Below are positions 1,767 to 62,308 of a stretch of 64,000 bases of DNA, piece by piece. Under the pieces are notes generated by a model. It was not told where the DNA came from. It saw only the letters and a program-made list of their open reading frames with translations, and ran no database searches. Position numbers and translations under genes: made by a program. The DNA comes from Pyrinomonadaceae bacterium. Lineage in GTDB: Bacteria; Acidobacteriota; Blastocatellia; Pyrinomonadales; Pyrinomonadaceae. The stretch covers positions 35,839-99,838 of the forward strand of contig JBGSXX010000002.1 in the NCBI GenBank assembly GCA_041751195.1, given 5' to 3'. Every line of letters begins with the position of its first letter. Within the stretch, counting starts at the first letter, position 1.

Positions 1767-3083
1767 TTAGTTTCCACCTCCGATATAGCTGTCGAAGCAG
1801 TCGAGGTGCATGTCAGAGTCATTGTTTGCGCCGAAGCCGCCGACGGCGATCAGTCGATCTTTCGGATCTGAACGGTCGAAAACTTTTTCGCCGTCAACCC
1901 ATGTTTCGAGCACGTGGGTGTAAACGCTGAGCGGGTCGCCCGAGAGCAATATCAGATCAGCGTCTTTGCCGGGCTCGAGCGAGCCTACGCGGTCTTGCAG
2001 ATCCATCATGATGGCGTTAGCCATTGTCAGGGCATACAGAGCCTTTTCGCGTGACATGCCTGCACGTACCGCGAGGCCGGCGGATCTTAAAAAGTGACGC
2101 GAGTCGGTGATGCCGTCGTCGGTATGAAAGCCGACGAGTGCGCCTGCTTTCTCAAGGGCTACGCCGTTCTCGAACCTGATATCAGCCGTTTCGAGCTTAC
2201 CGCCCGGGGAGTCGATGAAGATTATCGATGCAGGAGCCTTCGCTGCAGCGATCTCGTCTGCTACTTTCCAAGCCTCGGATACATGCTGAAGCACGATGCG
2301 GAAGCCGAATTCTTTCTGAAGCCTGAGCGCGGTGAGCACGTCGTCATGGCGATGCGTGTGGAAGTGGACCATACGCTTGCCGTCGAGTACTTCGACGAGA
2401 GTTTCCATCGCGAGGTCGCGGGTGGGCAGCTTGCTGGTGTCCTTGCCCGCTTTTTGTATCTTGTCGCGGTACTCCTGTGCCTTGATGAACTGTTCGCGAA
2501 CCAGAGCGGCTGCTTTTGCGCGGGTCCCGGGGAAGCTGCCGCCGCCTGCTCGGATCGAGTTTGTACCGTTAGCGAACTTTATACCGCCCATGTAGCGGTT
2601 GTCCTTGTCGTAAATAAGGAGGTCGTCGACGGTGTTCGCGTTGTCGCGGAGCTTAATGTAGAGGGTCTGGCCGCTGTTGAGATGGCCTGAACCGGGCATA
2701 ACGTTAACGGTCGTCAACCCTCCGGCTTGGGCACGCTGCAGGTTTGCGGCTCGCGGATTAAGCCCATCCAAAAGTCTTACTTCGGGCTGGATCGGGCCGG
2801 AGCCATCGGCACCAGAGCCGCTACCGATGTGGCTGTGGGTATCAACTAGCCCCGGCATGATTACCTTGCCCGCGGCGTCGATCGTCCTCGCGCCGGCAGG
2901 GATCTGGACGTTGGCCCCGACGGAGACAATCTTTCCGGTTCGGATAACGACCGTGCCGGATTCGATCGGTTGACCGACTATCGGTATTATACGGGCATTT
3001 GTGAAGGCGACGGCCTGTTGCTGTCCTACGGCCGAACACACGAACAGAGCCATTGCGGAAAGGCAGAAAAGTAGTTGTTTCAT
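1767..3083 (-). CDS. Secreted metal-dependent amidohydrolase family protein
   Basis: 438-aa ORF. Signal peptide MKQLLFCLSAMALFVCSAVG. PGLVDTHSHIG metal-binding block and GSLEPGKDADLILL C-terminal block. Tandem with 548..1765. Confidence 0.85.
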   Translation of the reverse strand: MKQLLFCLSAMALFVCSAVGQQQAVAFTNARIIPIVGQPIESGTVVIRTGKIVSVGANVQIPAGARTIDAAGKVIMPGLVDTHSHIGSGSGADGSGPIQPEVRLLDGLNPRAANLQRAQAGGLTTVNVMPGSGHLNSGQTLYIKLRDNANTVDDLLIYDKDNRYMGGIKFANGTNSIRAGGGSFPGTRAKAAALVREQFIKAQEYRDKIQKAGKDTSKLPTRDLAMETLVEVLDGKRMVHFHTHRHDDVLTALRLQKEFGFRIVLQHVSEAWKVADEIAAAKAPASIIFIDSPGGKLETADIRFENGVALEKAGALVGFHTDDGITDSRHFLRSAGLAVRAGMSREKALYALTMANAIMMDLQDRVGSLEPGKDADLILLSGDPLSVYTHVLETWVDGEKVFDRSDPKDRLIAVGGFGANNDSDMHLDCFDSYIGGGN

Positions 3084-3349
3084 CGACTGGTCCTCAAAGA
3101 TTTTTGATATTAGTTAACGGAGTGTACTGATAAAGTGCTACGAAATGGTGTCAGTGTCAAGAATCACTAGACGAAATCGTTTAGACGGAATGGAGTCGGC
3201 GCCAAGTGCCGATCTGTGATTTCAGCTAACTACAGATTTCTCAACGATTTGTCAGGGATGTCGTCATCGGTCGGTGACGGTGGCACGTATTTTGTAAGGA
3301 TTCCGATGAACGATAGGAAATAACAGAAGATTTCGGGGAGGAACATATT

Positions 3350-3805
3350 ATGCGACAGATGCAGAAAGTTTTAGTCATAGCTATTTTAATGATCTTTGGT
3401 ATCACGACGCTCGCGCCTGAGGCGTTCGCGCAGAGGCGAAAATCGAAACGTGGGTTGGCTACGAATATTGCGATCGTTGGTGGCGGCACGGCGTTAGGTG
3501 CTTTGATCGGCGGCAAAAAGGGTGCGGCGATCGGTGCAGGTGGTGGGTTGCTCTATGCAACGAGTCGGCGCGGGACGAAGCGTCGTCATGCTAACAGCAA
3601 AACACGCCGTAACCTTAAGGTTGCCGGTGGGGCGCTGGTAGGTGCAGGCGTTGGCGGCTTCGCTGGCAAACGTGGTGCGGCGATCGGTGCTTTAGCGGGT
3701 GCAGGTGCAACGTATCTATACACGAGGAACCAGCGACGGTATTACAGAACGTCGAATGGGCGACAGTTTTACACGCAGAACGGCCGTCGTTACTACGTTC
3801 GTTAG
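3350..3805 (+). CDS. Small secreted glycine-zipper protein
   Basis: GGAGG-type RBS before the ATG. Signal peptide MRQMQKVLVIAILMIFGITTLAPEAFA. Two internal Gly-zipper segments (GGGTALGALIGGKKGAAIGAGGG and GGALVGAGVGGFAGKRGAAIGALAGAG). Basic Tyr/Arg-rich tail. Confidence 0.6.
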   Translation: MRQMQKVLVIAILMIFGITTLAPEAFAQRRKSKRGLATNIAIVGGGTALGALIGGKKGAAIGAGGGLLYATSRRGTKRRHANSKTRRNLKVAGGALVGAGVGGFAGKRGAAIGALAGAGATYLYTRNQRRYYRTSNGRQFYTQNGRRYYVR

Positions 3806-3857: not shown

Positions 3858-5609
3858 TTATTTTTTGAATCGGGGAAGTTTAATGATGAACTCTGTCCCG
3901 CCTGTGTCGGAGTCAGTGATATCGATGGTACCGTCGTGGGCAGTTACGATCGCATAACACACGGCCAGACCAAGGCCGGTGCCTTTGCCAGGGGCCTTTG
4001 TCGTAAAAAACGGGTCAAAGGCTTTTTTCATTGCCAGTTTATCCATTCCCGTTCCGCTATCAGCTACTGAGATATGGACCTCTCCTGGTTCGACATTGCA
4101 ACTTATGTTAAGGGTTCCGCCATCCGGCATGGCATCGCGGGCATTCAAGAACAAATTGAGAAGTACCTGGTGGAGTTGATCGCCATCAGCGAGGATTGTC
4201 GGGTCCTCCTCCGTGGGTTGAAATGCAACGGTGAGTGACTGGAATGTACGATCAAACAGTGCCAGGCGGAGTGCGCGCTGTATAAGCTCGTTCACCGAGA
4301 TGGTGGTTCTGGCGGCGGGGCGAACTCGGGCGAATTCCGTGAGGTCTTTGGTTACCCGCGAGATCCGTCCGATCTGAGCAGAGATGAGTGCGAGATTCTC
4401 TTTGGCTTCGGTCTCGGAGATCTGCTCGGAACGCATCATCTGGATGAGTGACGAAATTGATGCGAGAGGGTTGTTTACCTCGTGAGCGACTCCGGCGGCA
4501 AGGGTTCCCATCGCAGCGAGACGGTCCGAGCGGACGAGGTGTTCGTTGAGATGCTTTAGCTGATCGATGTCGGCTGCCATCTTGCGGCTCATTTCGTTGA
4601 ACGAGTTAGCAAGGAGGCCGATCTCATCGTTGCTACGGCGTAGATCGACCTCGGTGCCGTATGCCCCGTTCGAAACCTCGACCGCAGCGACTGTGATGCG
4701 CTGGAGGGGCCGTGAGATCGTTCGAGCGATCAAAAGGAGAAGCAACAGGTTGGGTACTAGTGCAGAAAGAACGCTGAACACCAAATATTTCTTCCATGCA
4801 TCCGGGGTCATTCCGTTCGCGAACGCCCACCAGACAATTGGGATCTGAAATATCACAAAGCTGACAATCGCGACCGATGCGATGCTGAGCGCGATCTTGT
4901 AGGCGATCGGGAAGAGGCGAAACTGATCGAGCGCGGATTGGAGCGAGAACAATTTGAAATTCGAGATGGCATAGGCATATATCAGGGCGCCGGGGAGCAC
5001 GAACAGGGAACTGAAGGGCAGAAGGTCAAACACCCCGACAAGCGGAAGTATGACGTTTACCGTCGTTATAAGAATGACTGTGATAGTGAGGCCCCAGAGA
5101 ATGGAACCTAGCTGAAGACCACGCTGAGTGTCGCGATAGGTCCGGTGCTTCTGAATGAGGATGTATCCGCCGTAAAGAAACACGATGTAGACGTACACCC
5201 CGAAAACGTAGGCGAGCGGCGCGAGCTCAATATTGAACCCAGCGGTCGTGTCGATGCGATCCCAGAGAAGACCTAGCAACGCGGCGGGTACGAGGATAAG
5301 GCCTGGTGCCACAACAACGGCAAGTTTCTTTCGAGGAGTTCGCGAGTTTTCGGGAAATACCCACGCAAAGACGACGAGCGCGTATTGCATGAAGATCGCA
5401 ATAATGAAGCTGGCGGAGGCCCACCAGCCTGCCGAAGACGAGAACTCGGGGAAATTCCAGAAGACGAGGTCTTTGACTGTCCAGAGAGCGAGAAACGCGA
5501 TAAACCCAGCAAAGGTTTGGTGACCGCGGCTTCGGGGGTCGGCGACAAAAATGTAAAAGCCGAGGATGACCAGCAGAAACAAGACGACGAAGTGCAGCAG
5601 GACGAGCAT
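3858..5609 (-). CDS. Membrane sensor histidine kinase (multi-TM sensor, HAMP, HisKA, HATPase_c)
   Basis: 583-aa ORF. The N-terminal ~300 aa hold several hydrophobic helices. H-box AHEVNNPL, N-box [12 protein letters not shown]-boxes DSGTGM and GKGTGLGL. Confidence 0.9.
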
Positions 5610-5659
5610 TGCGTCAATAGTAATTCGCGGCTGCCAATCTCGGCAATGTGCAAAGCGTA

Positions 5660-6361
5660 CTAGTCGATGGTGATCTTGAAGTTGGCTCCAACGCCATGGA
5701 TCGTTCGGATAGAGCCGACGTCGTTCGTTCGGTAGACGTAGAAAATCTCCGCGGACGTGTTGCTGGGGAGTCCGACCTCCACGCCGGTGGAAAATTCGTT
5801 GCTGGACCAGGCTTTGTCCGCGGTGCTGTAAAAGAACTCGTTTGCCACAAAGGGCGCAAAGATCTCTTCACCATCCTTTTTCACGGGCACCTTCAACGAC
5901 ACTTTATTACGGTAACGAACAAAATCGCTTTTTGAATTCTGCGCACGATATTCCACACGGTTTCGATCTTTAATAGTGAAATGCTCGAATTTTTTCTGCA
6001 CGGTAAGATCGAAGCGGATGCGATGCTCGAAATCGGCGGGCCGGTCGCGTCGTGAGCGGCCGTAGCGATACAGATACGTCGGACTGAAGTTTAGATACGT
6101 GTTAATGCGCCAGTCGAAGCCCGCTCCAATTCGGCGGTCGACGGGATACAGACGGTTCTGGCCCAGACGGATAGTGCCGAGCATTAAGAAAGAGACGCGC
6201 GCATCGTTTTTGTCATCCCGTACCACCGGCACCGAAACGGTCGTTTCGCTCCAGACCTGAAAGTCGGTGGGGTCGGGAGTAGTGCTTTGCCCGCTGGATA
6301 GGGTATGCAATAGAAAAACGACCGTGCACATGGTGAGGGTAAGGGATAATTTTCGATACAC
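5660..6361 (-). CDS. Putative outer-membrane beta-barrel protein (DUF2490-like)
   Basis: 233-aa ORF with a signal peptide. Alternating beta-strand-like pattern rich in Y/R/F and a C-terminal aromatic strand (ANFKITID). The DUF2490 assignment is from memory of that family's size and composition and is not verified. Confidence 0.45.
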   Translation of the reverse strand: MYRKLSLTLTMCTVVFLLHTLSSGQSTTPDPTDFQVWSETTVSVPVVRDDKNDARVSFLMLGTIRLGQNRLYPVDRRIGAGFDWRINTYLNFSPTYLYRYGRSRRDRPADFEHRIRFDLTVQKKFEHFTIKDRNRVEYRAQNSKSDFVRYRNKVSLKVPVKKDGEEIFAPFVANEFFYSTADKAWSSNEFSTGVEVGLPSNTSAEIFYVYRTNDVGSIRTIHGVGANFKITID

Positions 6362-9137: not shown

Positions 9138-9911
9138 GTGAGATTTGAGTTACTTCCCAGTTCATTCGAAAGAGGCGGCGGTGCATCGCAACGGCAGCAT
9201 CTGACGTGCTTCCTGATCGACGATCTCGTGGCAGTGGATGCGGGCAGCCTGGCGCTCGCGGCGACCGACGAGCAACGACGTAGTGTTCGCGATGTGGTCA
9301 TCACACATGCACATCTAGATCACATTGCAGGACTGCCTTTGTTTGTCGATGACCTGTTCTCGGAATTGCGGGAACCGGTTACGATCCATGCGATCCAGGA
9401 GGTCATCGACATCTTAGAACGCGACATTTTCAATTGGTCGGTCTATCCTAGATTTTCAGAGCTCACGAACGATCACGGCCTTGTCATGCGATATTCCGCG
9501 ATCCCTGAAGGCGGCGAATTTCAGATCAAGCATTTGAGCTTTCGTGAGATTGAGGTAAATCACAATGTGCCGAACTCGGGATTCATAATCAGCGACGGTG
9601 AATCGAAGATCGCTCTGACAGGCGATACGGCAGAGATGGACGGGTTTTGGGAGTTCATCAATTCGGTCGATGGGCTGGATGCACTGCTGATCGAGTGCGC
9701 GTTTTCTGATGAGATGGGTGAGTTAGCTGACGTGTCGCATCACCTGACGCCGTCACAGCTGAGCCGGGAATTAGAGAAGTTCACGCAGGACTGCCCGATA
9801 CTTGCGATCAATCTAAAGCCGACATTTCGCGAGGCGATACTTAGCCAGCTTGAGACACTGGCGATTCCGCGACTGACTGTGTTGGAAAGCGGAAGAGTCT
9901 ATAAATGGTGA
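9138..9911 (+). CDS. MBL-fold metallo-hydrolase (class II cyclic-nucleotide phosphodiesterase-like)
   Basis: GTG start with an AAGGAG RBS 11 nt upstream. HAHLDHIAGLP (HxHxDH) motif. 257 aa. Confidence 0.75.
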   Translation: MRFELLPSSFERGGGASQRQHLTCFLIDDLVAVDAGSLALAATDEQRRSVRDVVITHAHLDHIAGLPLFVDDLFSELREPVTIHAIQEVIDILERDIFNWSVYPRFSELTNDHGLVMRYSAIPEGGEFQIKHLSFREIEVNHNVPNSGFIISDGESKIALTGDTAEMDGFWEFINSVDGLDALLIECAFSDEMGELADVSHHLTPSQLSRELEKFTQDCPILAINLKPTFREAILSQLETLAIPRLTVLESGRVYKW

Positions 9912-16725: not shown

Positions 16726-17580
16726 TTAGGACGCTCCGCTACCCGAAGCTCTCTGAATCCGCTGCGGCGTTAAATTGAGAATGTTCTCACCTGCCCGAAC
16801 CGAAACAGGCGAGCTCCATAATGCAAAGCCGTCAGCGGTCTTGGTGATACCGAATAGGTAGTAACTACCGGGTTCGACGTCGCTCATATTGGCTTTCCCG
16901 GCCGAATCAGTCGTTCCGGAATACTCGATGTTCTCGTTGATAGCGTTCATCGCCGAGCGATGAAAATCGCTATACCGGCTAGGATCGAGGACCGCGAGCG
17001 CGAGGCTGTTGGAAAGCGAGTTACCCTCGATCGGCTGTAATCGAGCCTCTCGCAGTATCTGTTCCAAGTCCTTTTCGAGCAAATAGAAACGCTCGTTCCT
17101 TACCGCCTGCGGTGTGCCGTTATCGGAAATTACACGAGCTTCGATACGGACGACCCCGCGATCGGTGTTCACCGACGTCTGGGAGCCCGGTACCGTGGAT
17201 TCACTTGTCGGCATTTCGGGCGGGGGAGCAGGAAGCGCGTCGGATGGAGCGACGTCGCTCGGCGGGATCGCCGATCGTGAATCAGTGGTCATGGTGTCAC
17301 GCGCGGGAGGGGCGCTGGTGTTTACCGCGACCCGGAGGTTTGAATTTGCTGCATCGTCGTCGCGCGACATCATTGCGAAAATGAAAAATATAACGAGTAC
17401 TGCGACTACCCCCATGGCGACGAACGCCCAGGGCGGAATGCCCTCAGAGCGGGGCTCCGTGCGTGCTACGACGGGGCGAACCGGTGGCGGCGCTATGTTG
17501 ACAGGCCTGCCGCAACTTGGGCAAGCGACCGCAGAATCGGAGATATCGTGTCCGCATTCAGGACAGTTTACTAATGGCAT
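16726..17580 (-). CDS. Zinc-ribbon membrane protein with Pro-rich linker and C-terminal beta-sandwich-like domain
   Basis: MPLVNCPECGHDISDSAVACPSCGRPV zinc ribbon, one TM helix and a Pro/Ser-rich linker. AAGGGAGGA RBS. The 21-bp array C lies 160 bp upstream. Confidence 0.7.
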   Translation of the reverse strand: MPLVNCPECGHDISDSAVACPSCGRPVNIAPPPVRPVVARTEPRSEGIPPWAFVAMGVVAVLVIFFIFAMMSRDDDAANSNLRVAVNTSAPPARDTMTTDSRSAIPPSDVAPSDALPAPPPEMPTSESTVPGSQTSVNTDRGVVRIEARVISDNGTPQAVRNERFYLLEKDLEQILREARLQPIEGNSLSNSLALAVLDPSRYSDFHRSAMNAINENIEYSGTTDSAGKANMSDVEPGSYYLFGITKTADGFALWSSPVSVRAGENILNLTPQRIQRASGSGAS

Positions 17581-17740: not shown

Positions 17741-17866
17741 GGCGCCTGCCGGCTAGCTCCGGGCGCTTGCCGGCTACCTGCCGGCGCCTGCCGGCTATCT
17801 CCCGGCGCTTGCCGGCGACCTCCCGGCGCGTGTCGGACACCTCCCGGCGGCCGTCCGGGCGGATCC
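17741..17866. repeat. Array C: about 6 tandem 21-bp units with a CCGGC-N4-GCCGG dyad
   Basis: Units start at 17741, 17762, 17783, 17804, 17825 and 17846: GGCGC(C/T)TGCCGGCTA.CT.C.; the last two are degenerate. Position 6 alternates C/T. Intergenic, between the aroC stop and the start of 16726..17580. Confidence 0.85.
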
Positions 17867-17936: not shown

Positions 17937-19139
17937 TTATGGCGATTCAACCGCCGGGCGAGTTGCAACAGTGAAAGAGGTGGAGACTGAGGCAAGATAA
18001 GAATCGACGTTTCGCATCATCTCATCGATCGAATCGCCCCCGAACTTTTCTCGCATCTCGTTGGCAAGAACGATGGCCAGCATTGATTCGGCGATAACCC
18101 CGGCTGCAGGGACGGCGGTGATGTCCGAGCGTTCGAAGGCGGCGGGGCTGTCGGCTTTGGTGTAGATGTCGACGGAGTTGAGGGGCTTCCGGAGCGTTGA
18201 GATGGGCTTCATATAACCGCGGACGCGGAGTTCTTCACCGTTGGTGATGCCGCCCTCGAGGCCTCCGGCCCGGTTCGTCTTACGATCGAATGAAGCTTCG
18301 CCGGCGAATATCTCGTCGTGGACCTGTGAACCGGGGAGTGAAGCGTTTTGGACGCCCGTGCCGATCTCGACGGCTTTGACGGCGTGGACGGACATTATTG
18401 CACGGGCGATGCGGCCGTCGAGCTTATCTTCCCAGGAAGTGTGAGAACCGAGTCCGATCGGTACGCCGTGAGCGACGACCTCGAAAATACCGCCCAGCGT
18501 GTCGCCGTCAGTTTTTGCTTTATCGATGGCGGCGATCATTTCGGCTTCGGCAGCTTTGTCTGTGCAGTTCAGGGGCGAGTCGGATTCGATGCGACTGATG
18601 TCTTCCCACGTGGCAGTTAGTGGGTTATCGGGGATACCGCCGAGAGAAACGACGTGGCTTCGGACCTCGACGTTGAATGTTTGCAGAAGTTGTTTGGCGA
18701 CGGCGCCTGCCGCAACGCGGGCGGCTGTTTCGCGTGCCGAAGCTCGTTCGAGGATGTCGCGAAGGTCGCGGGTCTGGAACTTCTGGCCGCCCGCGAGGTC
18801 TGCGTGACCGGGTCGTGGACGGGTCACGGTGCGGGGGTTTTTGGGCTGCACCTCAAGTGGCTCTGCGGACATGACCTCTTGCCAGTGAACGAAATCTTTG
18901 TTCTCGATCATGAGCGCGATAGGCGAGCCTAGGGCTTTGCCGTGGCGGATGCCGGCGAGGATCTGCACCGTGTCGCTTTCGATCTTCATTCTGCCGCCGC
19001 GGCCGTAGCCTTGTTGGCGACGCCAGAGTTCGTGGTCGATGGCTGCCTTGTCGATTGGGAGTCCTGCGGGAACGCCCTCGATGATTGTGACCAATGCGGG
19101 ACCGTGAGATTCGCCTGCGGTTGTGAATTTGAAGTGCAT
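17937..19139 (-). CDS. aroC: Chorismate synthase
   Basis: 400 aa. [26 protein letters not shown] and [12 protein letters not shown]-like blocks are typical of AroC. Confidence 0.95.
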
Positions 19140-34461: not shown

Positions 34462-35829
34462 CTAGGCCATTCCGCGGATGGTTTCGAGAACAAAGTCGAT
34501 CTCGGCGGTCGTGTTGACGATCGACGGGGTCAGCCGCGCGTGCGGGAAGGCGTAGGGCGTGACTGATGCGACGATGCCGCGTTCCCCCAGGGCATTGACG
34601 GCGCCGCCGGAGGAATAGCCCGCGACGTCGAAACAGACGATGCCCGCGGAGATGTCTTCGCTTTGCGGCGTGACGAGGTCGACGTGTTCCATTTCGGCGA
34701 GGCCCTGTTTCAGGCGGCTCGCGAGTTCGCGGGTGCGTGCCTCGACGCGGTCTTTGCCGATGTCGAGCATGAAATCGAACGCGTCCGCCATTGCCCATTG
34801 GTGTTCGAAAGGTTTGAAGCCGCCGGGCGTCAGACGTCGGCCGGTCGTGGGGCCGCTGATTCCGCGGCCGGTTATCCAAGCGTTTCGGACGCTATTGTCG
34901 GAGAAAGTGGGGATCGTCGGTTCGATGTTTTCCCAGCCTTTGGCGCTCGCCCAGACGATGCCGGTGCCGCGAGGGCCGAAGAGCCATTTGTGGCAGCCGG
35001 CGGCGAAGTAATCGCATTCCAGATCGGCCATTTCTACGTCCTCGATGCCAAATCCGTGAACGCCGTCGACGGCGAGCAGGATGTTCTGATCGGGCTCGCG
35101 TGTCGCGTTGATCTCGCTGATGCCTCCAGAGATCTGCCGAACGGGGAGCTTGAGGCCGGTGCTCGAATGCACCCAGGTCAGGGCAACGACGCGCGTTTCC
35201 GGGAGGATGGCGTTGAGGATCCGGCTAGTTAGTTCGTCGATTGTGACGGTGTTGATGTCGGAGTACATCGGGATCGTGCGGTAAGTTGCTCCCGATTTCC
35301 CGCATTTGAGGCGGATGGCTTCGTCGGTGGAGTAATAATTTTGCTCGGTGGTCAGAAACTCCTGGCCGGGGCCGATCTTGATGCCGTTATAGATGAGTCC
35401 GAGGCCCATAGTGGTGCTGTCCGTGATCGCAATGTCCTCGTGCGACGCTCCGAGATAGCGGGCGGCCGCACGCAGGGTTTCATCTTCGTTGCCGCTGTTA
35501 TTTTCGTTCAGATAGCCGACCGGGTCGACATCGAGTCCGCGCCTGTGGCGTTCGATAGCCTCGCGGACGGGAGCGGGGTTCGCGGCGATGAGCAGTGCGC
35601 TCATGTGGATCTTGTCGTCGGTTAGCGCGAACTGGCTGCGGACCTTCGCCCAGTCATCGGAATCGGGCTGCTGCGCCGCGACGGGGATCGGCTTGGCAGC
35701 GCGGGTCGACCTTTCGGGCCCGTCGTCCGATCCGCACGCGACGGCCAGAGCCGCGCCGCCCGCGAGAGCAGCCTTGATAAAGTTCCGGCGATCAACACCA
35801 GAAGTGTTTCGATTCGATTCAGTTCGCAC
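34462..35829 (-). CDS. Class V aminotransferase-fold PLP enzyme with Tat signal and lipobox-like Cys
   Basis: ORF 34462..36081, but its N-terminal 84 codons run through repeat array A. An in-frame GTG at 35829 gives MRTESNRNTSGVDRRNFIKAALAGGAALAVACG (twin-Arg motif RRNFIK, then AVAC). The body resembles cysteine desulfurase / isopenicillin-N-epimerase-like enzymes (ALTWVHSSTG, CHKWLFGPRGTG). Confidence 0.7.
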   Translation of the reverse strand: MRTESNRNTSGVDRRNFIKAALAGGAALAVACGSDDGPERSTRAAKPIPVAAQQPDSDDWAKVRSQFALTDDKIHMSALLIAANPAPVREAIERHRRGLDVDPVGYLNENNSGNEDETLRAAARYLGASHEDIAITDSTTMGLGLIYNGIKIGPGQEFLTTEQNYYSTDEAIRLKCGKSGATYRTIPMYSDINTVTIDELTSRILNAILPETRVVALTWVHSSTGLKLPVRQISGGISEINATREPDQNILLAVDGVHGFGIEDVEMADLECDYFAAGCHKWLFGPRGTGIVWASAKGWENIEPTIPTFSDNSVRNAWITGRGISGPTTGRRLTPGGFKPFEHQWAMADAFDFMLDIGKDRVEARTRELASRLKQGLAEMEHVDLVTPQSEDISAGIVCFDVAGYSSGGAVNALGERGIVASVTPYAFPHARLTPSIVNTTAEIDFVLETIRGMA

Positions 35830-35971: not shown

Positions 35972-36243
35972 GCGCACTCACCAGCTGCGTCAGCGCACTC
36001 GTCAGGTGCGTCAGCGCACTCGTCAGGTGCGTTAGCGCACTCTTCAGGTGCGTCAGCGCACTCAGTAGTGCGCCAGCGCACTCAGTAGGTGCGCCAGCGC
36101 ACTCGGTAGGTGCGCCAGCGCATTCGGTAGGTGCGCCAGCGCACTCAGTAGGTGCGCTAACGCACTCGGTAGGTGCGCTAACGCACTCAATAGGTGCGCT
36201 AGCGCACTCGGTAGGTGCGCTAACGCAGCTGATAGGTGCGCGG
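35972..36243. repeat. Array A: 13 tandem units (12 x 21 bp, one 20 bp) with a GTGCG-N4-CGCAC dyad
   Basis: Units start at 35972, 35993, 36014, 36035, 36056 (20 bp), 36076, 36097, 36118, 36139, 36160, 36181, 36202 and 36223. Consensus GCGCACTC(A/G)GTAGGTGCGC(C/T)A. The parse was verified against the translation of ORF 35833..36324. Confidence 0.95.
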
Positions 36244-36259
36244 TCGCTGGGGGCCGTGC

Positions 36260-36288
36260 TTGCGGTGTTTCGAGTGATTTGCTATATT
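36260..36288 (+). promoter_or_regulatory. Sigma70-like promoter candidate for the 228-aa gene (paralogue A)
   Basis: TTGCGG-N17-TATATT, 59 nt upstream of the ATG at 36348. Followed by leader stem-loop GCCTT-N7-AAGGC (36295-36311) and an ACAGGAG box. Confidence 0.45.
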
Positions 36289-36347
36289 CTTTTTGCCTTA
36301 TCATCCAAGGCGCTACCCCAGTAAATACAGGAGCTGCAAGAAAATAG

Positions 36348-37034
36348 ATGCCAGATAAACCTTTACCGAGAGGCGAGGCCGAGCTCGTGATCTTTCTTCA
36401 TGTTTTCAACGCAAAACTAGCTATTCACCACGTTGCTCTGGGCATTTCCGCCGAAGAAGTGGCCCAAATGCAGTTGAATACTGATAATTTTGTCTATCTC
36501 GTGAATCTTTCGAGGCAGGTGCAGGACACGCGTGATGCGTTTGCGCGGTTCAAAGATACGGCGCTGTACGGCGATCTGAACGAGCCGACGCCACACATTC
36601 CGGTGTTTCCCACTGTCGCACCGCCCGAGACCATCAGCACCGGGATCGTTACGTATTTGAAGATGATCATTCGCAAGATGAAGAGCTCGGGGAAGTGGAC
36701 ACGGCAGCTCGCGGAGGAATTTGGGCTGTGGACGGATGATCCCTCGCCGAATCCTGCGTCGATCACTCCTGTGCTGTCGGGCTGGGCGTTGCCGATGGGC
36801 GAGGTCGCGATCAAATTCCTCAAATATCGGCGCGAGGGCATTCGCCTTGAGCAGCGAATGAGGGGGGAGCAAACGTGGACGAGCCTCGGGAACTTTACGA
36901 AGTCTCCGATCATCCTGGGACCGGGCGGCAAAAACGGCGATCCGATCGCCTTCGAATTCCGCGCACGCTTCACCGAAAACGACAAACCCGTCGGCAACTT
37001 CTCATCAGTCATGACCGTCATCACAACGCCCTAG
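36348..37034 (+). CDS. Hypothetical 228-aa protein, paralogue A (helical N-domain plus FN3-like C-domain; family not recognised)
   Basis: An in-frame TAG lies immediately before the ATG. Aligns without gaps to 60912..61598, with 119/228 identical positions by hand count. The C-terminal ~95 aa follow an FN3-like pattern (...W..L...; FEFRARF; PVGNFSSVMTVITTP). No signal peptide. Confidence 0.8.
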   Translation: MPDKPLPRGEAELVIFLHVFNAKLAIHHVALGISAEEVAQMQLNTDNFVYLVNLSRQVQDTRDAFARFKDTALYGDLNEPTPHIPVFPTVAPPETISTGIVTYLKMIIRKMKSSGKWTRQLAEEFGLWTDDPSPNPASITPVLSGWALPMGEVAIKFLKYRREGIRLEQRMRGEQTWTSLGNFTKSPIILGPGGKNGDPIAFEFRARFTENDKPVGNFSSVMTVITTP

Positions 37035-37135: not shown

Positions 37136-37477
37136 CTATTCGGGGCTATGAAAATCAAATGCCTCGGCTAACTCATCATTCTCAAAAAGGTCGGCGACCA
37201 GGCGCTCGACAACCTCGGTATTCAAGTGCTCGACGACTATCATATCCTTACAGAAGAAATACAGCCCTCCAGCGCAATCTCCATTTCTTTTGCTTCTTTT
37301 GAGCTGTGTCTGCAGGTTTACTAAAGTGAAAACCGTTGCCGTGTAGAAGCTACCATCATTCAAGGTTACCTGGACGTCGACATTATCGTCGTTCTCGTCT
37401 ATGGGGTCGGACCTACCCGAGAAGATAGTAATTACATACTGCGGTCTTCGTATCTCAAGATTTGGATTACTCTCCAT
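37136..37477 (-). CDS. Hypothetical small acidic cytoplasmic protein (immunity-protein-like, unverified)
   Basis: ORF 37136..37558; I preferred the ATG at 37477 (MESNPNLEIRR). AT-rich relative to its surroundings. The pattern ...GGLYFFCKDMIVVEHLNTEVVERLVADL weakly recalls small polymorphic-toxin immunity proteins. Confidence 0.45.
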   Translation of the reverse strand: MESNPNLEIRRPQYVITIFSGRSDPIDENDDNVDVQVTLNDGSFYTATVFTLVNLQTQLKRSKRNGDCAGGLYFFCKDMIVVEHLNTEVVERLVADLFENDELAEAFDFHSPE

Positions 37478-37575
37478 AGCAGTCCGTAGGAACTCGGCGC
37501 GTCTAGGTCTGTGATGCGCGGAAGTTGGTTGCGGTAGGAGCGCCTGGCATCGCGGCACCCCGGCCTACCTAGCGA

Positions 37576-38238
37576 TTAATGGTCTTTCCAGTCCGTTTGC
37601 ACTTTTTGATATCGCTTCGTCAGCAGCCTTGACTGTTTACTCTCAGTTCCCAGTAAGTCGACAAACATTTCGACCGTACCTTGATGGTTATCGGAATGTG
37701 GCCCGTCGAAAAGGAAATACCAAAAGGACGCAGCTTTCTCATCCGGCAACTCGTCCAATATTCGCTTTGCCTCATTCATATGATTTCGGACCAATGTCTG
37801 TGAGCGACGTTGAAATACCGAAATGGCATCTGCGTCCCATCTTCCATCGACTCCCGTGTGAATAACCTTATTCAGCTTTGCCAGATCCGACACTTCGGGG
37901 CAATCGAAAAAGTACTCCAGATGAGTTTCAGTCTGTGAAATCAAAACGCGTTCGCCCATCACCTCGTCGAACCCATACAGACTATCAAGCTCGGAGATTG
38001 ACTTTGGAAAAAGTTCGACGAAATTTTCGCAATTCTTAGTGTTATATGATTCAGTGAGATTCTTCGCGGCCAGTTCGAAGTGATCATCTACCTTCGGCGT
38101 ACCGCTTACCTGGATTGACGCGGTCTCGTTCGTTCTTGGATCGGCGTTCGGGCTAGGTTCAGGACTATTGCACGCAAAAGTCATAAACATGCCAAGACAG
38201 CCAGCAACGAAAACAGCTTTCTTACTTGTGTTACACAT
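37576..38238 (-). CDS. Hypothetical lipoprotein
   Basis: ORF 37576..38265 (TTG). The ATG at 38238 is 7 nt after AGGAGG. Signal MCNTSKKAVFVAGCLGMFMTFAC with a lipobox-like FAC. AT-rich. Confidence 0.6.
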   Translation of the reverse strand: MCNTSKKAVFVAGCLGMFMTFACNSPEPSPNADPRTNETASIQVSGTPKVDDHFELAAKNLTESYNTKNCENFVELFPKSISELDSLYGFDEVMGERVLISQTETHLEYFFDCPEVSDLAKLNKVIHTGVDGRWDADAISVFQRRSQTLVRNHMNEAKRILDELPDEKAASFWYFLFDGPHSDNHQGTVEMFVDLLGTESKQSRLLTKRYQKVQTDWKDH

Positions 38239-38268
38239 TAGTGTGCCTCCTGTGAAGATCGTCAAATC

Positions 38269-38646
38269 CTACCAAGGATCGATTGCAATTCGGCCGGACA
38301 GACTGTCGAACCTCACCAAGACCTGCCATGTAAATAGCTTCGATATAAGCGTTGCCTCGTCTCTTCCGTCCAGAATCTCCCTTATCCGACGATCCTCAGG
38401 TTTAAGAGAGTTTATATAGTCCCGACAACTGCCACTGTTCGATCGCGTGCGATTCTTGTCCGTTACAAAATAACGTGAAATCGTAGCTACACAGCCTTGG
38501 CAAAAAACCTTTTGAAGCGTGTTACCCTCGCGCAATAATCTGAATTTATACTCGGTGGACGTCTTGATAATTAAAAACAGCCCATCCTCATCCGGCTTCG
38601 CATTCTCAAGAAACAAGGGAGAGCCGCTCGTTAATGTTTCTTTCAT
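38269..38646 (-). CDS. Hypothetical protein
   Basis: 125-aa ORF. Its start overlaps the stop of 38643..38879 (ATGA). AT-rich. No motif recognised. Confidence 0.45.
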   Translation of the reverse strand: MKETLTSGSPLFLENAKPDEDGLFLIIKTSTEYKFRLLREGNTLQKVFCQGCVATISRYFVTDKNRTRSNSGSCRDYINSLKPEDRRIREILDGRDEATLISKLFTWQVLVRFDSLSGRIAIDPW

Positions 38647-38879
38647 GAACGCCTTGTACTGTCGAATCCTTCCGTTTCATTCAGCAATAAAAAAAGATCG
38701 CTATTTTTCACTACGACCTTTCCGGTATACCCATTCGACGATACGTCCAAAGCGATAAAGTAGCGGCCGTCTGAATCAAGCAAATGATCGAAGTAGTCGA
38801 GCTGATTCCCTAGGCCGCTAGTTGTGAAGGCCACCAAGATCGATATCGCGATAAGAAGTTCTATTAATTTTGTAGACAT
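38643..38879 (-). CDS. Hypothetical small secreted or anchored protein
   Basis: 78-aa ORF with an N-terminal hydrophobic helix (LIELLIAISILVAFTTSGLG). Translationally coupled to the downstream ORF. Confidence 0.4.
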   Translation of the reverse strand: MSTKLIELLIAISILVAFTTSGLGNQLDYFDHLLDSDGRYFIALDVSSNGYTGKVVVKNSDLFLLLNETEGFDSTRRS

Positions 38880-39044
38880 ACAATTTGATGCTCGAACTTT
38901 TGGCTCTCACTTAGTTGCACCTGGCCGCCAGGCATGGCAGCAACCCCGCCCTCTCGGCGGCCAAACCCAACGCGACCACGGAGAAGCCCGCCTCTTCCCC
39001 GACCGCCTCCGCCGCAAAACCGGGTGGCATTCGACCCAATTCTG

Positions 39045-39518
39045 TTACTTCTGGAGCGCTTTATTTACCATCCCCCAGCAAACGAACACGAGCTGTTTTG
39101 CGTAGAAAGTTTCCTCGTCGAATACCGAAATATCCGGAACTAACAATACGAACACCGAAGTCGGCTCAACTGACTGTATCGACACACCTTGCCAGCGTGA
39201 CTTAATTAGCACGTGAGCCACGTCGAGTCGTTCCCGGCACGCCGTCTCAGCTTCTTCGTCCTGTTTAGTCGGTTCGAATAAATAGCTGAACGGTTCGTCA
39301 AGCTTTACAAGGTGCCAATCATCCCCCCAGTCTTCTGACGCGACAATGCGCACTACCCTCCCAGAGCGCGGTAGGATACTTTCCATCTGGAGATTCTGGT
39401 CAAAGTAGCGAAGAATAATTTGCTCGCCGATCATAATTATCGTCAATATGGCGGAGGCAACTGAATAACACAAGGCACGGGCGGAGAGGAATGCATTGGC
39501 CCACGCCGTGCCGGGCAT
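39045..39518 (-). CDS. Hypothetical protein (possible N-terminal TM helix)
   Basis: 157-aa ORF starting 16 nt after the prfC stop. Start uncertain (internal Met residues). No motif recognised. Confidence 0.45.
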   Translation of the reverse strand: MPGTAWANAFLSARALCYSVASAILTIIMIGEQIILRYFDQNLQMESILPRSGRVVRIVASEDWGDDWHLVKLDEPFSYLFEPTKQDEEAETACRERLDVAHVLIKSRWQGVSIQSVEPTSVFVLLVPDISVFDEETFYAKQLVFVCWGMVNKALQK

Positions 39519-60120: not shown

Positions 60121-60774
60121 TTACTCATCATCGAAATTATCTCTGGCGACTACGAGAGGCTCGATCAAAGAAACGAGTTCTCTTAACTCCTTTTCATTTT
60201 TGTCCGTTTTTTCTTTGCGGTTTCTGTAACGGGTATATACTTTCGCGCGGCCTTTGATGAAATGAAGCCCGACGTCGGTCAGCGCGGTATTCGCGTAAAC
60301 GTTTTTAACCAGAACGGCCTCGTCTCCTACTTCACGAACCTTGATAAAATCTCCCATTGAAATAAAATCCAAACTTCTCCAGAAATCCTCACTCATTCCT
60401 TTTTTAGCGAGCCTTAAGTTAATGACTAGAAATAGATTCTTTTGCTTGCCATTCTGCCAGGATATTTCGTTTACCGTGCTGCCCCGCTCTCCCGGCGGCA
60501 TCGAAATCAAATGCGACGCACGTTTATTTTTTAGCTTATATTTAGGCTTTTCTTTGGCCATAATTTCTATAATATCTTCCTGAATCCGCTGAGCCTCAGC
60601 AAAAGCCATGTCAACCTTTTCCTGCGGAACATTCTTGTCACGTTCCAGCAGGTTCTGCCGCCCTTCGTCAGGAACCTGGGCGATGCTGATACTCGCCGAA
60701 CCGATCCCCAGATAACAAAGGGCCACCAAAGCGAAGAGTGTCGCGGTCACGGCGCGGCAATCGATCTTATTCAT
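60121..60774 (-). CDS. Hypothetical secreted protein (AT-rich ORFan)
   Basis: ORF 60121..60789 (TTG); I preferred the ATG at 60774 (MNKIDCRAVTATLFALVALCYLGIGSASISIAQV signal). Hand counts on two 60-nt lines give 35-38% G+C, versus about 60% in a flanking housekeeping line. Confidence 0.6.
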   Translation of the reverse strand: MNKIDCRAVTATLFALVALCYLGIGSASISIAQVPDEGRQNLLERDKNVPQEKVDMAFAEAQRIQEDIIEIMAKEKPKYKLKNKRASHLISMPPGERGSTVNEISWQNGKQKNLFLVINLRLAKKGMSEDFWRSLDFISMGDFIKVREVGDEAVLVKNVYANTALTDVGLHFIKGRAKVYTRYRNRKEKTDKNEKELRELVSLIEPLVVARDNFDDE

Positions 60775-60859
60775 TGTTCCTAGCTCCAAATTGCGTTTGC
60801 GTGCCCAGACCTGTGATGCCCGGGGATTTGGTCATGATAGCACGGGCCACAAACAACAA

Positions 60860-60911: not shown

Positions 60912-61598
60912 TTACGGCGTTGTTACGACCGTGATTACTGCTGAGAAGTTGCCGACGGGGCTGTCCTTCTCGGTGTATCGGGCTCGAAACTCGACGATCT
61001 GGGGCTGGCCGGTCTCAGACGGCGGAGTAAATTTGATGGGCGACGTCGTCCAACGACCCAAGTTCTTCCACTCCGATTCGCCCTTAAAACGCCATTCGAG
61101 CTGAATGCCCTGACGCCCGTTTTTGCGATACCGGACTTCAAGCTCACCCAGCGGCAAGGCGGTAGCCGTAAGCACCGGCATATTCGATTCGGGGTCCGGC
61201 GACGGATGATCAGACCAAAGGCCAAACTCTTCCGCCATCTGATTCGTGTATTTCGTCGTACTCTTCATCTTCCGAATGAGCAATTTCGCGTAAGTAATGA
61301 TCCCCGGCTCGCCGGCTTCCGGCAAGTTGATAGCCGGGAATGCAGGCGTGGGAGGTGTCGCACCGTCAACATCGCCATAAAGCATCGTCTGCTTAAAATC
61401 GGTAAACGCTTCACGCGTATCCGCCACCTGTTGGTTAACGTTAATGAGGAAGGTGAGATTCGCGACATGATTAGCCATCATCGCGATCTCTGTGGGGCTT
61501 ATTCCAAGCGAAGGTCCGTAAGTAACGAGCTTCTCTTGGAAGTTAACGAAAAAGGGAACGAGTTCTGATTCAACTCGCGGTATCTGTTTGTCAGGCAT
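60912..61598 (-). CDS. Hypothetical 228-aa protein, paralogue B (same family as 36348..37034)
   Basis: Same length as paralogue A and aligns to it without gaps, with about 52% identity by hand count. Shared blocks are MPDK..PR.E.ELV, LGIS, IRKMKS, AEEFGLW, FRAR.TE.D.PVGNFS and TTP at the C-terminus. Confidence 0.8.
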   Translation of the reverse strand: MPDKQIPRVESELVPFFVNFQEKLVTYGPSLGISPTEIAMMANHVANLTFLINVNQQVADTREAFTDFKQTMLYGDVDGATPPTPAFPAINLPEAGEPGIITYAKLLIRKMKSTTKYTNQMAEEFGLWSDHPSPDPESNMPVLTATALPLGELEVRYRKNGRQGIQLEWRFKGESEWKNLGRWTTSPIKFTPPSETGQPQIVEFRARYTEKDSPVGNFSAVITVVTTP

Positions 61599-61664
61599 AG
61601 TGCTAACTTATAACTCCTGTTCTTAGTTTTATATGAAATTTGCCTCGGGTGACGTGGCAAAGAA

Positions 61665-61694
61665 AATATACCAAAAATGTTTTGGTAGTTGCAA
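61665..61694 (-). promoter_or_regulatory. Sigma70-like promoter candidate for paralogue B
   Basis: The minus strand reads TTGCAA-N18-TATATT, 66 nt upstream of the ATG at 61598. Followed by leader stem-loop TTTGCC-N11-GGCAAA (61661-61639) and an ACAGGAG box, the same layout as paralogue A. Confidence 0.45.
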
Positions 61695-61781
61695 CTAGAT
61701 TTTACGTCTCGGCAAGATCGCTTGCGCCCACGGCCGGAATCGGCTCCCCGAACGCAATAAAATAGGCCATATCTGCGGCTT

Positions 61782-62179
61782 TGCAACTCCGACTTGCGCG
61801 ATTGCAAATCCAGTCTGCGACGTTGCAAATCCAATCTGCGCGATTGCAAATCCAATCTGCAACGTTGCAAGTCCAATCTGCGCGATTGCAAATCCAATCT
61901 GCAACGCTGCAAATCCAATTTGCGCGACTGCAAATCCAATCTGCGAGGTTGCAAATCCAATCTGCAACGCTGCAATCCAATCTGCGCGATTGCAAATCCA
62001 ATTTGCGACGTTGCAAATTCAATCTGCGCGATTGCAAATCCAATTTGCGAGGTTGCAAATCCAATCTGCAACGCTGCAACTCCAATCTGCGCGATTGCAA
62101 ATCCAATTTGCGACGTTGCAAATCCGATCTGCGCGATTGCAAATCCAATCTGCGCGAGCGCAATTCCGACCTGCGCGGG
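61782..62179. repeat. Array B: 19 tandem units (18 x 21 bp, one 20 bp) with an AT(C/T)TGC-N6-GCAAAT dyad
   Basis: Plus-strand consensus TGCAAATCCAATCTGC(G/A)NNNN. The first unit starts at 61782. The 20-bp unit is at 61971-61990. The last two units are degenerate. The parse was verified against the translation of ORF 61781..62272. Confidence 0.95.
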
Positions 62180-62308
62180 CGCAAATGGGTGGGGCTTGCC
62201 CAGAAGAAGCCGCCTAAAGGCGGGATTTTTAACGGGCGGCGGGTCCGGTGGCTTAAGCCAACTGGAATTTAGAGGAAGGGCCCGTGGAGGCCCTTCTGCT
62301 GTCGGCGT

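Follow-up and report, generated by a model that had tools for sequence, protein, structure and literature searches.

Helically phased 21-bp tandem arrays upstream of an unnamed bacterial protein family: a putative DNA control element

Association of 21-bp arrays with a protein family

The stretch of DNA that we have analyzed (the window) has 64,000 nt and belongs to contig JBGSXX010000002.1 of a Pyrinomonadaceae bacterium (assembly GCA_041751195.1, positions 35,839 to 99,838). It contains a tandem repeat, array A, with a repeat unit of 21 bp, located upstream of the promoter of a gene coding for a 228 amino acid protein. Similar arrays, with a period of two helical turns, are found upstream of almost every member of this protein family that we have examined, so they are probably a conserved, non-coding DNA control element. 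As for array A itself, its sequence leads us to suggest, tentatively, that it is a helically phased array of putative protein-binding sites which controls the adjacent promoter. What is new is that phased tandem arrays, similar to operators or iterons, are attached to a family of proteins without a name: The libraries and papers that we have searched give no description of such an association.

The gene lies at 36348–37034 on the plus strand. A word-indexed search with its protein finds only three relatives, and the original prediction, made from the sequence, had described it as an ORFan. This does not hold: A HMMER profile search of 1.84 billion representatives detects 1206 family clusters at E ≤ 1e-3, 416 of them at E ≤ 1e-10. 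The best 150 hits listed are mostly full-length, with about 226–235 amino acids. The family has no match in Pfam, NCBIfam, PHROG or PADLOC, and the source records say "hypothetical protein". A scan of metagenome contigs with a protein pattern gave no family match.

We have fetched nine further independent family loci, whose proteins are 20–30% identical to the protein in the window. The resulting census covers 144.6 kb. It counts the arrays detected by Tandem Repeats Finder (TRF) with a score of at least 80 and a period of 21, 42 or 43 bp, to which a higher-order period of 63 bp is added in some cases. Such arrays are found within 1 kb upstream of 9 of the 10 family genes and at only one other place, array B in the window (Fisher p = 1.6e-12). 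An eleventh independent gene (L048), scanned after the census, also has arrays upstream. Among the arrays delimited by TRF are those of loci L004 (5397–5522 plus further runs), L007 (5564–5791), L014 (4542–4753, with a period of 43), L016 (a member of the Chthoniobacterales, 4698–4950, with the palindrome CACCAG-CG-CTGGTG) and L018 (3381–3951, about 27 units). The runs are several, short and degenerate in L019, and several and short in L048.

The most distant relatives with such arrays have about 20% protein identity, and at least two phyla are represented: Acidobacteriota (L002) and Verrucomicrobiota (L016 and L017). The gene neighborhoods of the family loci are otherwise unrelated, and the family gene is the only constant companion of the array. 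Unit sequences are also unrelated between distant loci, while the period is kept at 21–21.5 bp. Some contigs stop near or inside the repeats: L001, a short-read contig with an identical gene, ends inside the equivalent of array A, while L005 and L047 begin only 245–381 bp before the gene, which would agree with assemblies being interrupted by repeats. L047 presents no array in the 245 bp upstream of the gene that its contig covers.

Structure of array A

Array A occupies positions 35972–36243, without assigned strand. TRF reports 35972–36241, with a period of 21, 12 copies and 89% matches, and also a period-63 superstructure with a score of 331. Slicing into units gives 13 head-to-tail repeats, twelve of 21 bp and one of 20 bp at 36056–36075, with the consensus GCGCACTCGGTAGGTGCGCCA, in agreement with the original prediction. 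The unit may be written as GCGCAC-N7-GTGCGC-YA, and its repetition forms a 14-bp palindrome, GTGCGC-YA-GCGCAC, every 21 bp. The motif GTGCG-N4-CGCAC had been claimed for every junction between units. It has nine exact matches in the window, all nine within array A, as compared with a mean of 0.14 in shuffled sequences (none of 100 shuffles reached nine). At the three remaining junctions, as read from the units, one base deviates.

The variable positions of the unit are 1, 9–11 and 19–20, which correspond to the two dyad centers. The half-sites, on the other hand, are at least 90% invariant, as had been noted. The unit table also confirms two sub-families. Units 1–4 (35972–36055) end in ..TCAGGTGCGTCA, and their half-site GTGCGT forms a G.T mismatch with GCGCAC. 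The ending ..GTAGGTGCGC[CT]A spans units 5–13. It includes the 20-bp unit, in which one G is missing before TGCGC and all reading frames are shifted, and units 6–13 (36076–36243). Units 10, 11 and 13, close to the promoter, begin with ACGCA.

The same pattern of constraint is found in four arrays from three deeply diverged lineages: In array A, in array C of the window (described below), in L002 and in L016, the half-sites are at least 0.9 conserved, and variation is found in the dyad centers or in the linkers.

Array A is non-coding. One frame per strand is free of stop codons and the other four carry 2–13 stops: Only two of the six frames are open, and not all six as previously stated. A translated heptad repeat is also excluded by the 20-bp units of arrays A and C, by the promoter located between array and gene, and by the 43-bp period of L014, which is not a multiple of three.

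A second module and an ortholog

A family-profile search of all open reading frames (ORFs) in the window finds exactly two copies of the gene. The second one, at 60912–61598 on the minus strand, is 52% identical to the gene at 36348, and it is preceded by array C (61771–62180, minus strand), which TRF and slicing resolve into 19 units of 21 bp, one of them of 20 bp. The two modules are 25 kb apart. In array C the gene-strand unit TTGCAATCGCGCAGATTGGAT alternates with TTGCAACGTYGCAGATTGGAT, which gives a 42-bp super-period. Units of arrays B and C look unrelated to those of array A at first sight, but the units of array C are homologous to those of A and L002.

The ortholog in L002, a contig from a metagenome-assembled genome of Blastocatellia (Acidobacteriota), has 82% protein identity and a seven-unit 21-bp array in the equivalent position. 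In array A, the divergent gene upstream codes for a pyridoxal phosphate (PLP) enzyme, which matches the twin-arginine translocation (Tat) signal proposed for it if started at 35829. In L002 this Tat-signal PLP aminotransferase gene is only a remnant (3347–3640, with about 1.1 kb deleted), while array, promoter and family gene are intact. The array is thus tied to the 228 amino acid gene, as shown by its retention in L002 and its presence upstream of the paralog and of distant family members. Orthologous loci carry arrays, and their absence had been proposed as a reason to abandon a regulatory role.

In a common register, palindrome and linker read GTGCGC-YA-GCGCAC-TCGGTAG in array A, TTGCGC-TA-GCGCAG-TTGGTCG in L002 and TTGCAA-TC-GCGCAG-ATTGGAT in array C. 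A and L002 share the 12-bp core TGCGC-YA-GCGCA without any change, but differ in flanks and linker. The three units are clearly homologous, which indicates that the array has been inherited with the gene through speciation and duplication, and homogenized at each locus.

Copy number changes in steps of 21 bp. There are 13 units in array A, as compared with seven in its ortholog, and values from about 5 to about 27 are found between loci. L007 differs from L008–L010 by exactly one 21-bp unit in otherwise identical sequence.

Promoter and 5' untranslated region

A sigma-70-type promoter for the 228 amino acid gene is found at 36260–36288 on the plus strand. It has a -35 box TTGCGG (36260–36265) located 16 bp past the end of array A, a 17-nt spacer and an extended -10 box, TGcTATATT (36280–36288), with TG at 36280–36281 and TATATT at 36283–36288. 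The arrangement TTGCGG-N17-TATATT had been predicted, and it is conserved in L002 and in module C. A consensus promoter scanner does not call it in array A, because the -35 box matches the consensus in only three of six positions. The scanner does call the equivalent site of module C (61665–61694, minus strand), with TTGCAA, an 18-nt spacer and TGgTATATT, which the alignment also identifies.

The whole region between array and gene is kept in A, L002 and C: TTGCGG or TTGCAA, a spacer of 17–18 nt, TGnTATATT, a short stem-loop and AGGAG. By eye, L004, L007 and L047 also present a TTGC-type -35 box, with a -10 box at 17–18 nt. In array A the center of the -35 box lies about 20 bp, or one period, beyond the last, degenerate dyad center (36242.5). 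Considering A and L002 together, the distance is 20–22 bp, again about one period. Scans of modules A and C found no terminator-like site between array and gene.

The predicted stem-loop of module A, read from the sequences and their alignment, is located at 36295–36311 on the plus strand (GCCTT-ATCATCC-AAGGC). Module C has a stem-loop at the equivalent position of its untranslated region (61640–61662) with another stem, TTTGCC..GGCAAA as compared with GCCTT..AAGGC. The distance from AGGAG to ATG is unusually long, 15–17 nt, in both paralogs of the window.

Proposed function

Once other classes of elements have failed, as discussed below, the best-supported explanation is a function at the DNA level which depends on helical phase. 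In the mechanism that we propose for array A, each 14-bp palindrome would be bound by a dimer of a sequence-specific protein. Since the palindromes are 21 bp apart, all dimers would lie on one face of the helix. Phased dimers could then polymerize cooperatively into a filament abutting the -35 box, one period past the last dyad, and this filament would set the activity of the promoter, either repressing it or making it a sharp switch. If whole units of 21 bp are gained or lost, the number of sites would change, but not their phase. Protein binding, the identity of the binder and the sign of the regulation are what we infer.

Several observations weigh against such a mechanism. The distance from array to promoter varies from about 12 to about 320 bp between loci. 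One locus of the family, L011, has no clear array, and its autocorrelation at 42 bp is weak. Most arrays have a strong dyad symmetry, which is absent or weak, however, in L007, L014 and array B. Units differ between paralogs of a single genome, not only in the window but also in L004 and L019, where the paralogs are on one contig: A single shared regulator would need a very loose specificity. No DNA-binding gene is conserved as a neighbor across the family loci, and no protein binding the array has been identified in this analysis. The family protein is the only conserved neighbor. It is mildly acidic (median isoelectric point 6.4), with a net charge of -2 in its N-terminal domain, and a profile search of PDB sequences gave no significant match. 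The searches that we have run do not relate its fold, coiled-coil plus FN3, to any DNA-binding protein. There is also an orphan intergenic array, at 4015–4212 of L035, with 9.4 copies of a 21-bp unit (CTGCGCTAGCGCAGAGGTCTT) very similar to that of L002, in a 7.9-kb contig without a family gene. Since the reader of the array is only putative, our reading of array A is less certain than originally implied.

If it is true, the arrays are a cis-element defined by geometry, two helical turns and a dyad in each unit, and not by sequence. Acidobacteriota and Verrucomicrobiota, at least, would have kept this geometry beside one and the same protein family. As the association is found in more than one phylum, the finding is more than a single odd repeat. 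Experiments on the family, which has more than 1000 clusters and no Pfam, NCBIfam or PHROG model, could start from the arrays, which are also a possible test case for the concerted evolution of cooperative, phased operator arrays. There is also a practical warning: Short-read assemblies are interrupted by the arrays, just before the gene, and gene prediction sometimes turns the repeats into spurious heptad-repeat proteins.

Alternative explanations

In architecture, the arrays are closest to plasmid iterons beside rep genes and to the sopC and parC centromeres. In the logic of gene and repeat, the closest analogies are type III toxin-antitoxin systems and phase-variable tracts. The alternatives that we have considered correspond in part to these known systems.

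The array might be a contingency minisatellite, without any dedicated binder, whose length changes in 21-bp steps and, like a rheostat, tunes expression of the paralogous family through distance, supercoiling or cruciform formation. The one-unit polymorphism between L007 and L008 and the range of copy numbers between loci fit this idea, and neighboring units are most alike, with 42- and 63-bp higher-order repeats among the arrays, which is typical of unequal exchange. Array A as a whole is a quasi-palindrome, with arms of up to 106 nt and 71% complementarity, and the family is multi-copy in some genomes. Comparable cases are known: Phase-switching tracts have units of 1–7 bp, for example the GAA tracts of Mycoplasma gallisepticum vlhA and the 7-bp repeats of Haemophilus influenzae hmw. 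PMC6258824 describes repeat tracts upstream of the promoters of phase-variable gene families, with copy numbers differing between strains. Our arrays are similar in that a tandem repeat precedes the promoter of each paralog, and its copy number differs between L007 and L008. No variation was seen in array A itself, for which the one other contig, L001, ends inside the repeats. On the other hand, their unit is a dyad-bearing 21 bp, not 3–7 bp. As 21 bp are an integral number of helical turns, a change in unit number leaves upstream sites unrotated with respect to the promoter. The conservation of the half-sites is also left unexplained. We consider this explanation unlikely.

A functionless satellite could also hitch-hike with the gene, if a slippage-prone hairpin sequence had arisen once upstream of the ancestral gene and had persisted by concerted evolution. 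The signs of concerted evolution and the higher-order repeats agree with this, as do the badly degenerate arrays of L011 and L019 and the orphan arrays, B and L035. Nevertheless, the arrays persist down to about 20% protein identity in at least two phyla, their period is held while the sequence is replaced, and conservation within the unit is position-specific. This makes a mere satellite distinctly unlikely.

Another explanation is a particular case of the protein-binding array that we favor: The protein of about 230 amino acids would bind its own array, either for autoregulation or for an organization of DNA similar to that of iterons or centromeres. Co-evolution of protein and array would explain why units are specific to each paralog (A and C, L004 and L019). 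As paralogs of one genome have different units, the product of the adjacent gene is the simplest candidate reader. The family gene is the sole feature that always accompanies the array. The AlphaFold model (mean pLDDT 89.6) has an N-terminal helical hairpin (residues 10–27 and 35–74), a proline-rich linker, two short helices and a C-terminal beta sandwich of the FN3 type, and the long helical hairpin could dimerize. The acidic character of the protein, however, argues against such a role, and so does the fact that its only positive patch, with a charge of +2, is in helices 3–4. It has no helix-turn-helix, ribbon-helix-helix or winged-helix domain, and its Foldseek matches are FN3 domains only. 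We find self-recognition rather improbable. Hardly more can be said for its extension, a self-contained two-part module widespread in soil phyla. Here a protein of the coiled-coil plus FN3 type, outside the Rep, Par and helix-turn-helix families, would recognize its own helically phased 21-bp array, which would co-evolve with it. Such a module would constitute a new class of protein-DNA systems, similar to iterons or centromeres and serving either autoregulation or the organization of DNA.

The array could also act as RNA, if transcribed hairpin units bound or titrated a protein, as in type III toxin-antitoxin systems (PMC3401426) or RNA sponges. A chain of plus-strand hairpins had in fact been proposed for array A. 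In type III systems (ToxIN, CptIN and TenpIN), a locus-specific repeat array with units of about 34–46 nt precedes the protein gene, with a promoter before the repeats and a terminator between them and the gene. Our modules resemble them: In A, C, L002 and other loci, the array immediately precedes, in the same orientation, a protein gene with which it co-varies, and the modules are small, multi-copy and independent of context. Compared with shuffled sequences, most arrays form far more stable folds, among them those of A, C, L002, L016 and L018, and the half-sites GCGCAG and TTGCGC of L002 pair with a G.U on the sense strand. Nevertheless, the strand that folds better is not consistent between loci and follows G+T content. 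It is the sense strand in C, L002 and L018, the antisense strand in L004, L016 and L019, and neither in A, while the array of L007 folds no better than shuffles. Within array A, the G.T mismatches change strand: Units 1–4 carry them on the sense strand, but units 10, 11 and 13 on the antisense strand. The units have 21 nt, the conserved promoter comes after the array, and there is no intervening terminator. PADLOC and Pfam give no hit similar to ToxN/AbiQ, CptN or TenpN, and Foldseek only finds FN3. With Rfam 15, only tRNAs reach threshold in the window, and the array regions present sub-threshold matches to eukaryotic miRNA hairpins. An RNA element is thus very improbable, and the proposed hairpin chain finds no support across the family.

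Array A had also seemed reminiscent of iterons or of a partition centromere, which would come from an integrated plasmid or phage. In spite of the architecture, this is extremely improbable. Iteron arrays beside plasmid rep genes (F, P1, R6K, RK2, pSC101) have head-to-tail units of about 17–22 bp with two-turn spacing, and the units diverge with the adjacent gene while the spacing stays. Our arrays share the direct 21-bp units at two-turn spacing beside one gene, the internal dyads, and the divergence of units with conserved spacing. Tandem-repeat centromeres include sopC (12 copies of 43 bp, with inverted repeats), parC of R1, tubC and the omega heptads. As in sopC and parC, a long, regular, dyad-bearing array is located beside a promoter and could nucleate a cooperative nucleoprotein filament. 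There is also an array with the core TGCGC-CA-GCGCA in a phage contig, L003, where it is inside a gene. However, the 10 kb around array A (ORFs in 31.9–41.1 kb) lack genes for Rep, ParA, ParB and ParR, let alone for a Rep_3-type initiator, and no genes for ParA, ParM or TubZ, or for centromere-binding proteins such as ParB, ParR or TubR, are adjacent to it. Its neighbors are chromosomal housekeeping genes: ClpX, an M50 protease, the PLP enzyme and RF3. The arrays belong to single-gene modules in varied chromosomal contexts, with an acidic coiled-coil plus FN3 protein. Two of these modules are found 25 kb apart in the window, where the cumulative GC skew rises steadily without any switch. A tblastn search of two family proteins against 72,556 plasmids and a search of the family profile against viral contigs gave no match.

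A generic repetitive extragenic palindromic (REP) or bacterial interspersed mosaic element (BIME), or a translated heptad repeat, can hardly account for the array: GTAG precedes a GC-rich palindrome in units 5–13, one frame is open on each strand and the TGCGCYAGCGCA core is often coding (A-L/P-A-Q/H) in other sequences, for example L044, L029 and L003, but GTAG is absent in units 1–4, L002 and C, the rest of the window lacks the unit even if three mismatches are allowed, and the frames are broken as described above.

Other element classes and related sequences

A GTAG or CGTC tag at one end of the palindrome is typical of REP and BIME sequences. GTAG before a GC-rich palindrome is the signature of REP elements (PMC3733652). 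Units 5–13 of array A resemble REP and BIME sequences in this respect, but units 1–4 do not, and neither L002 nor C has kept the tag. The units of array A are also arranged head-to-tail, not head-to-head or tail-to-tail, and no copies of them are scattered through the window. Such dispersal had been considered an argument against a specific regulatory role, and in fact the unit is confined to the array. As for an associated RAYT transposase, no IS200-like gene was noticed near array A, and no search aimed at one was made.

Other classes have also been discarded. Array A is not a clustered regularly interspaced short palindromic repeat (CRISPR) locus: Its units are contiguous, without spacers. 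A defense, plasmid or phage origin finds no support in PADLOC or PHROG hits, or in matches to plasmids or viral contigs. Intrinsic curvature was estimated with our own implementation of the Bolshoy-Trifonov wedge model, and the results are weak evidence: Arrays A and C are predicted to be no more curved than 60–74% of windows of the same sequence, and only L002, L018 and L019 are moderately curved. Curvature is thus not a shared property of the arrays. Finally, the unit of array A, seen by eye as GCAC-N7-GTGC, resembles an NtrC site, and in A and L002 there is a GG-N10-GC which ends in the TTGC of the -35 box. A sigma-54/NtrC system was rejected: This spacing is absent in C, L004 and L007, whereas the extended -10 box is conserved.

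A DNA-pattern scan for TGCGCYAGCGCA at 21-bp spacing found 25 metagenome loci and one viral locus, none of them with a family gene. Several of these loci simply code for A-L-A-Q heptads: The palindrome core does not identify the element by itself. In L044 (7631–7766), the TGCGCTGGCGCA core recurs every 21 bp as a true coding repeat (RQRNEPL, six times) near the N-terminus of a 307 amino acid protein. The AT-rich phage contig L003 (IMGVR_UViG_3300022545_000004) has at least 8.5 perfect 21-bp units (AGGGTGTTGCGCCAGCGCAAC) at 9166–9344. They are located in the 3' part of an ORF without a Pfam hit and are translated as GVAPAQQ heptads. This layout recalls the origin iterons embedded in initiator genes of the lambda O type.

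Two arrays have no family gene nearby. Array B (17741–17849) consists of five units of 21 bp (GGCGCCTGCCGGCTACCTCCC). It is flanked by the 3' end of a minus-strand 400 amino acid ORF (17937–19139), which we take to be chorismate synthase from its sequence, and by the start of a minus-strand gene coding for a 284 amino acid zinc-ribbon protein (16726–17580). The array of L035 is found between the 3' end of a 555 amino acid ORF (4270–5937) and a 552 amino acid ORF (1802–3460), both on the minus strand. Reading their sequences, we assume that they are an M20-type peptidase and a phosphoglycerate mutase.

The locus L004 presents two regions of 21-bp repeats around a spacer of about 170 bp (5397–5905). 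At the ends of the spacer there is a perfect 13-bp inverted repeat, GGGTGCAAATCCC (5542–5554) and GGGATTTGCACCC (5725–5737), a layout similar to that of an invertible segment. A public gene call in this locus (5338–5634, 98 amino acids with Ala/Ile heptads) is probably an artefact of the repeats. In L018, a second tandem array with a period of 20 or 39 bp and about five units (4944–5040) overlaps the family gene at its stop codon and continues downstream.

Both modules of the window are located in patches of lower GC content (37136–39518 and 60121–60789), with 0.47–0.50 as compared with about 0.55 elsewhere. These patches contain minus-strand ORFs without Pfam or PADLOC hits, including two proteins of 229 and 222 amino acids which look like lipoproteins or secreted proteins, and they may be small genomic islets.

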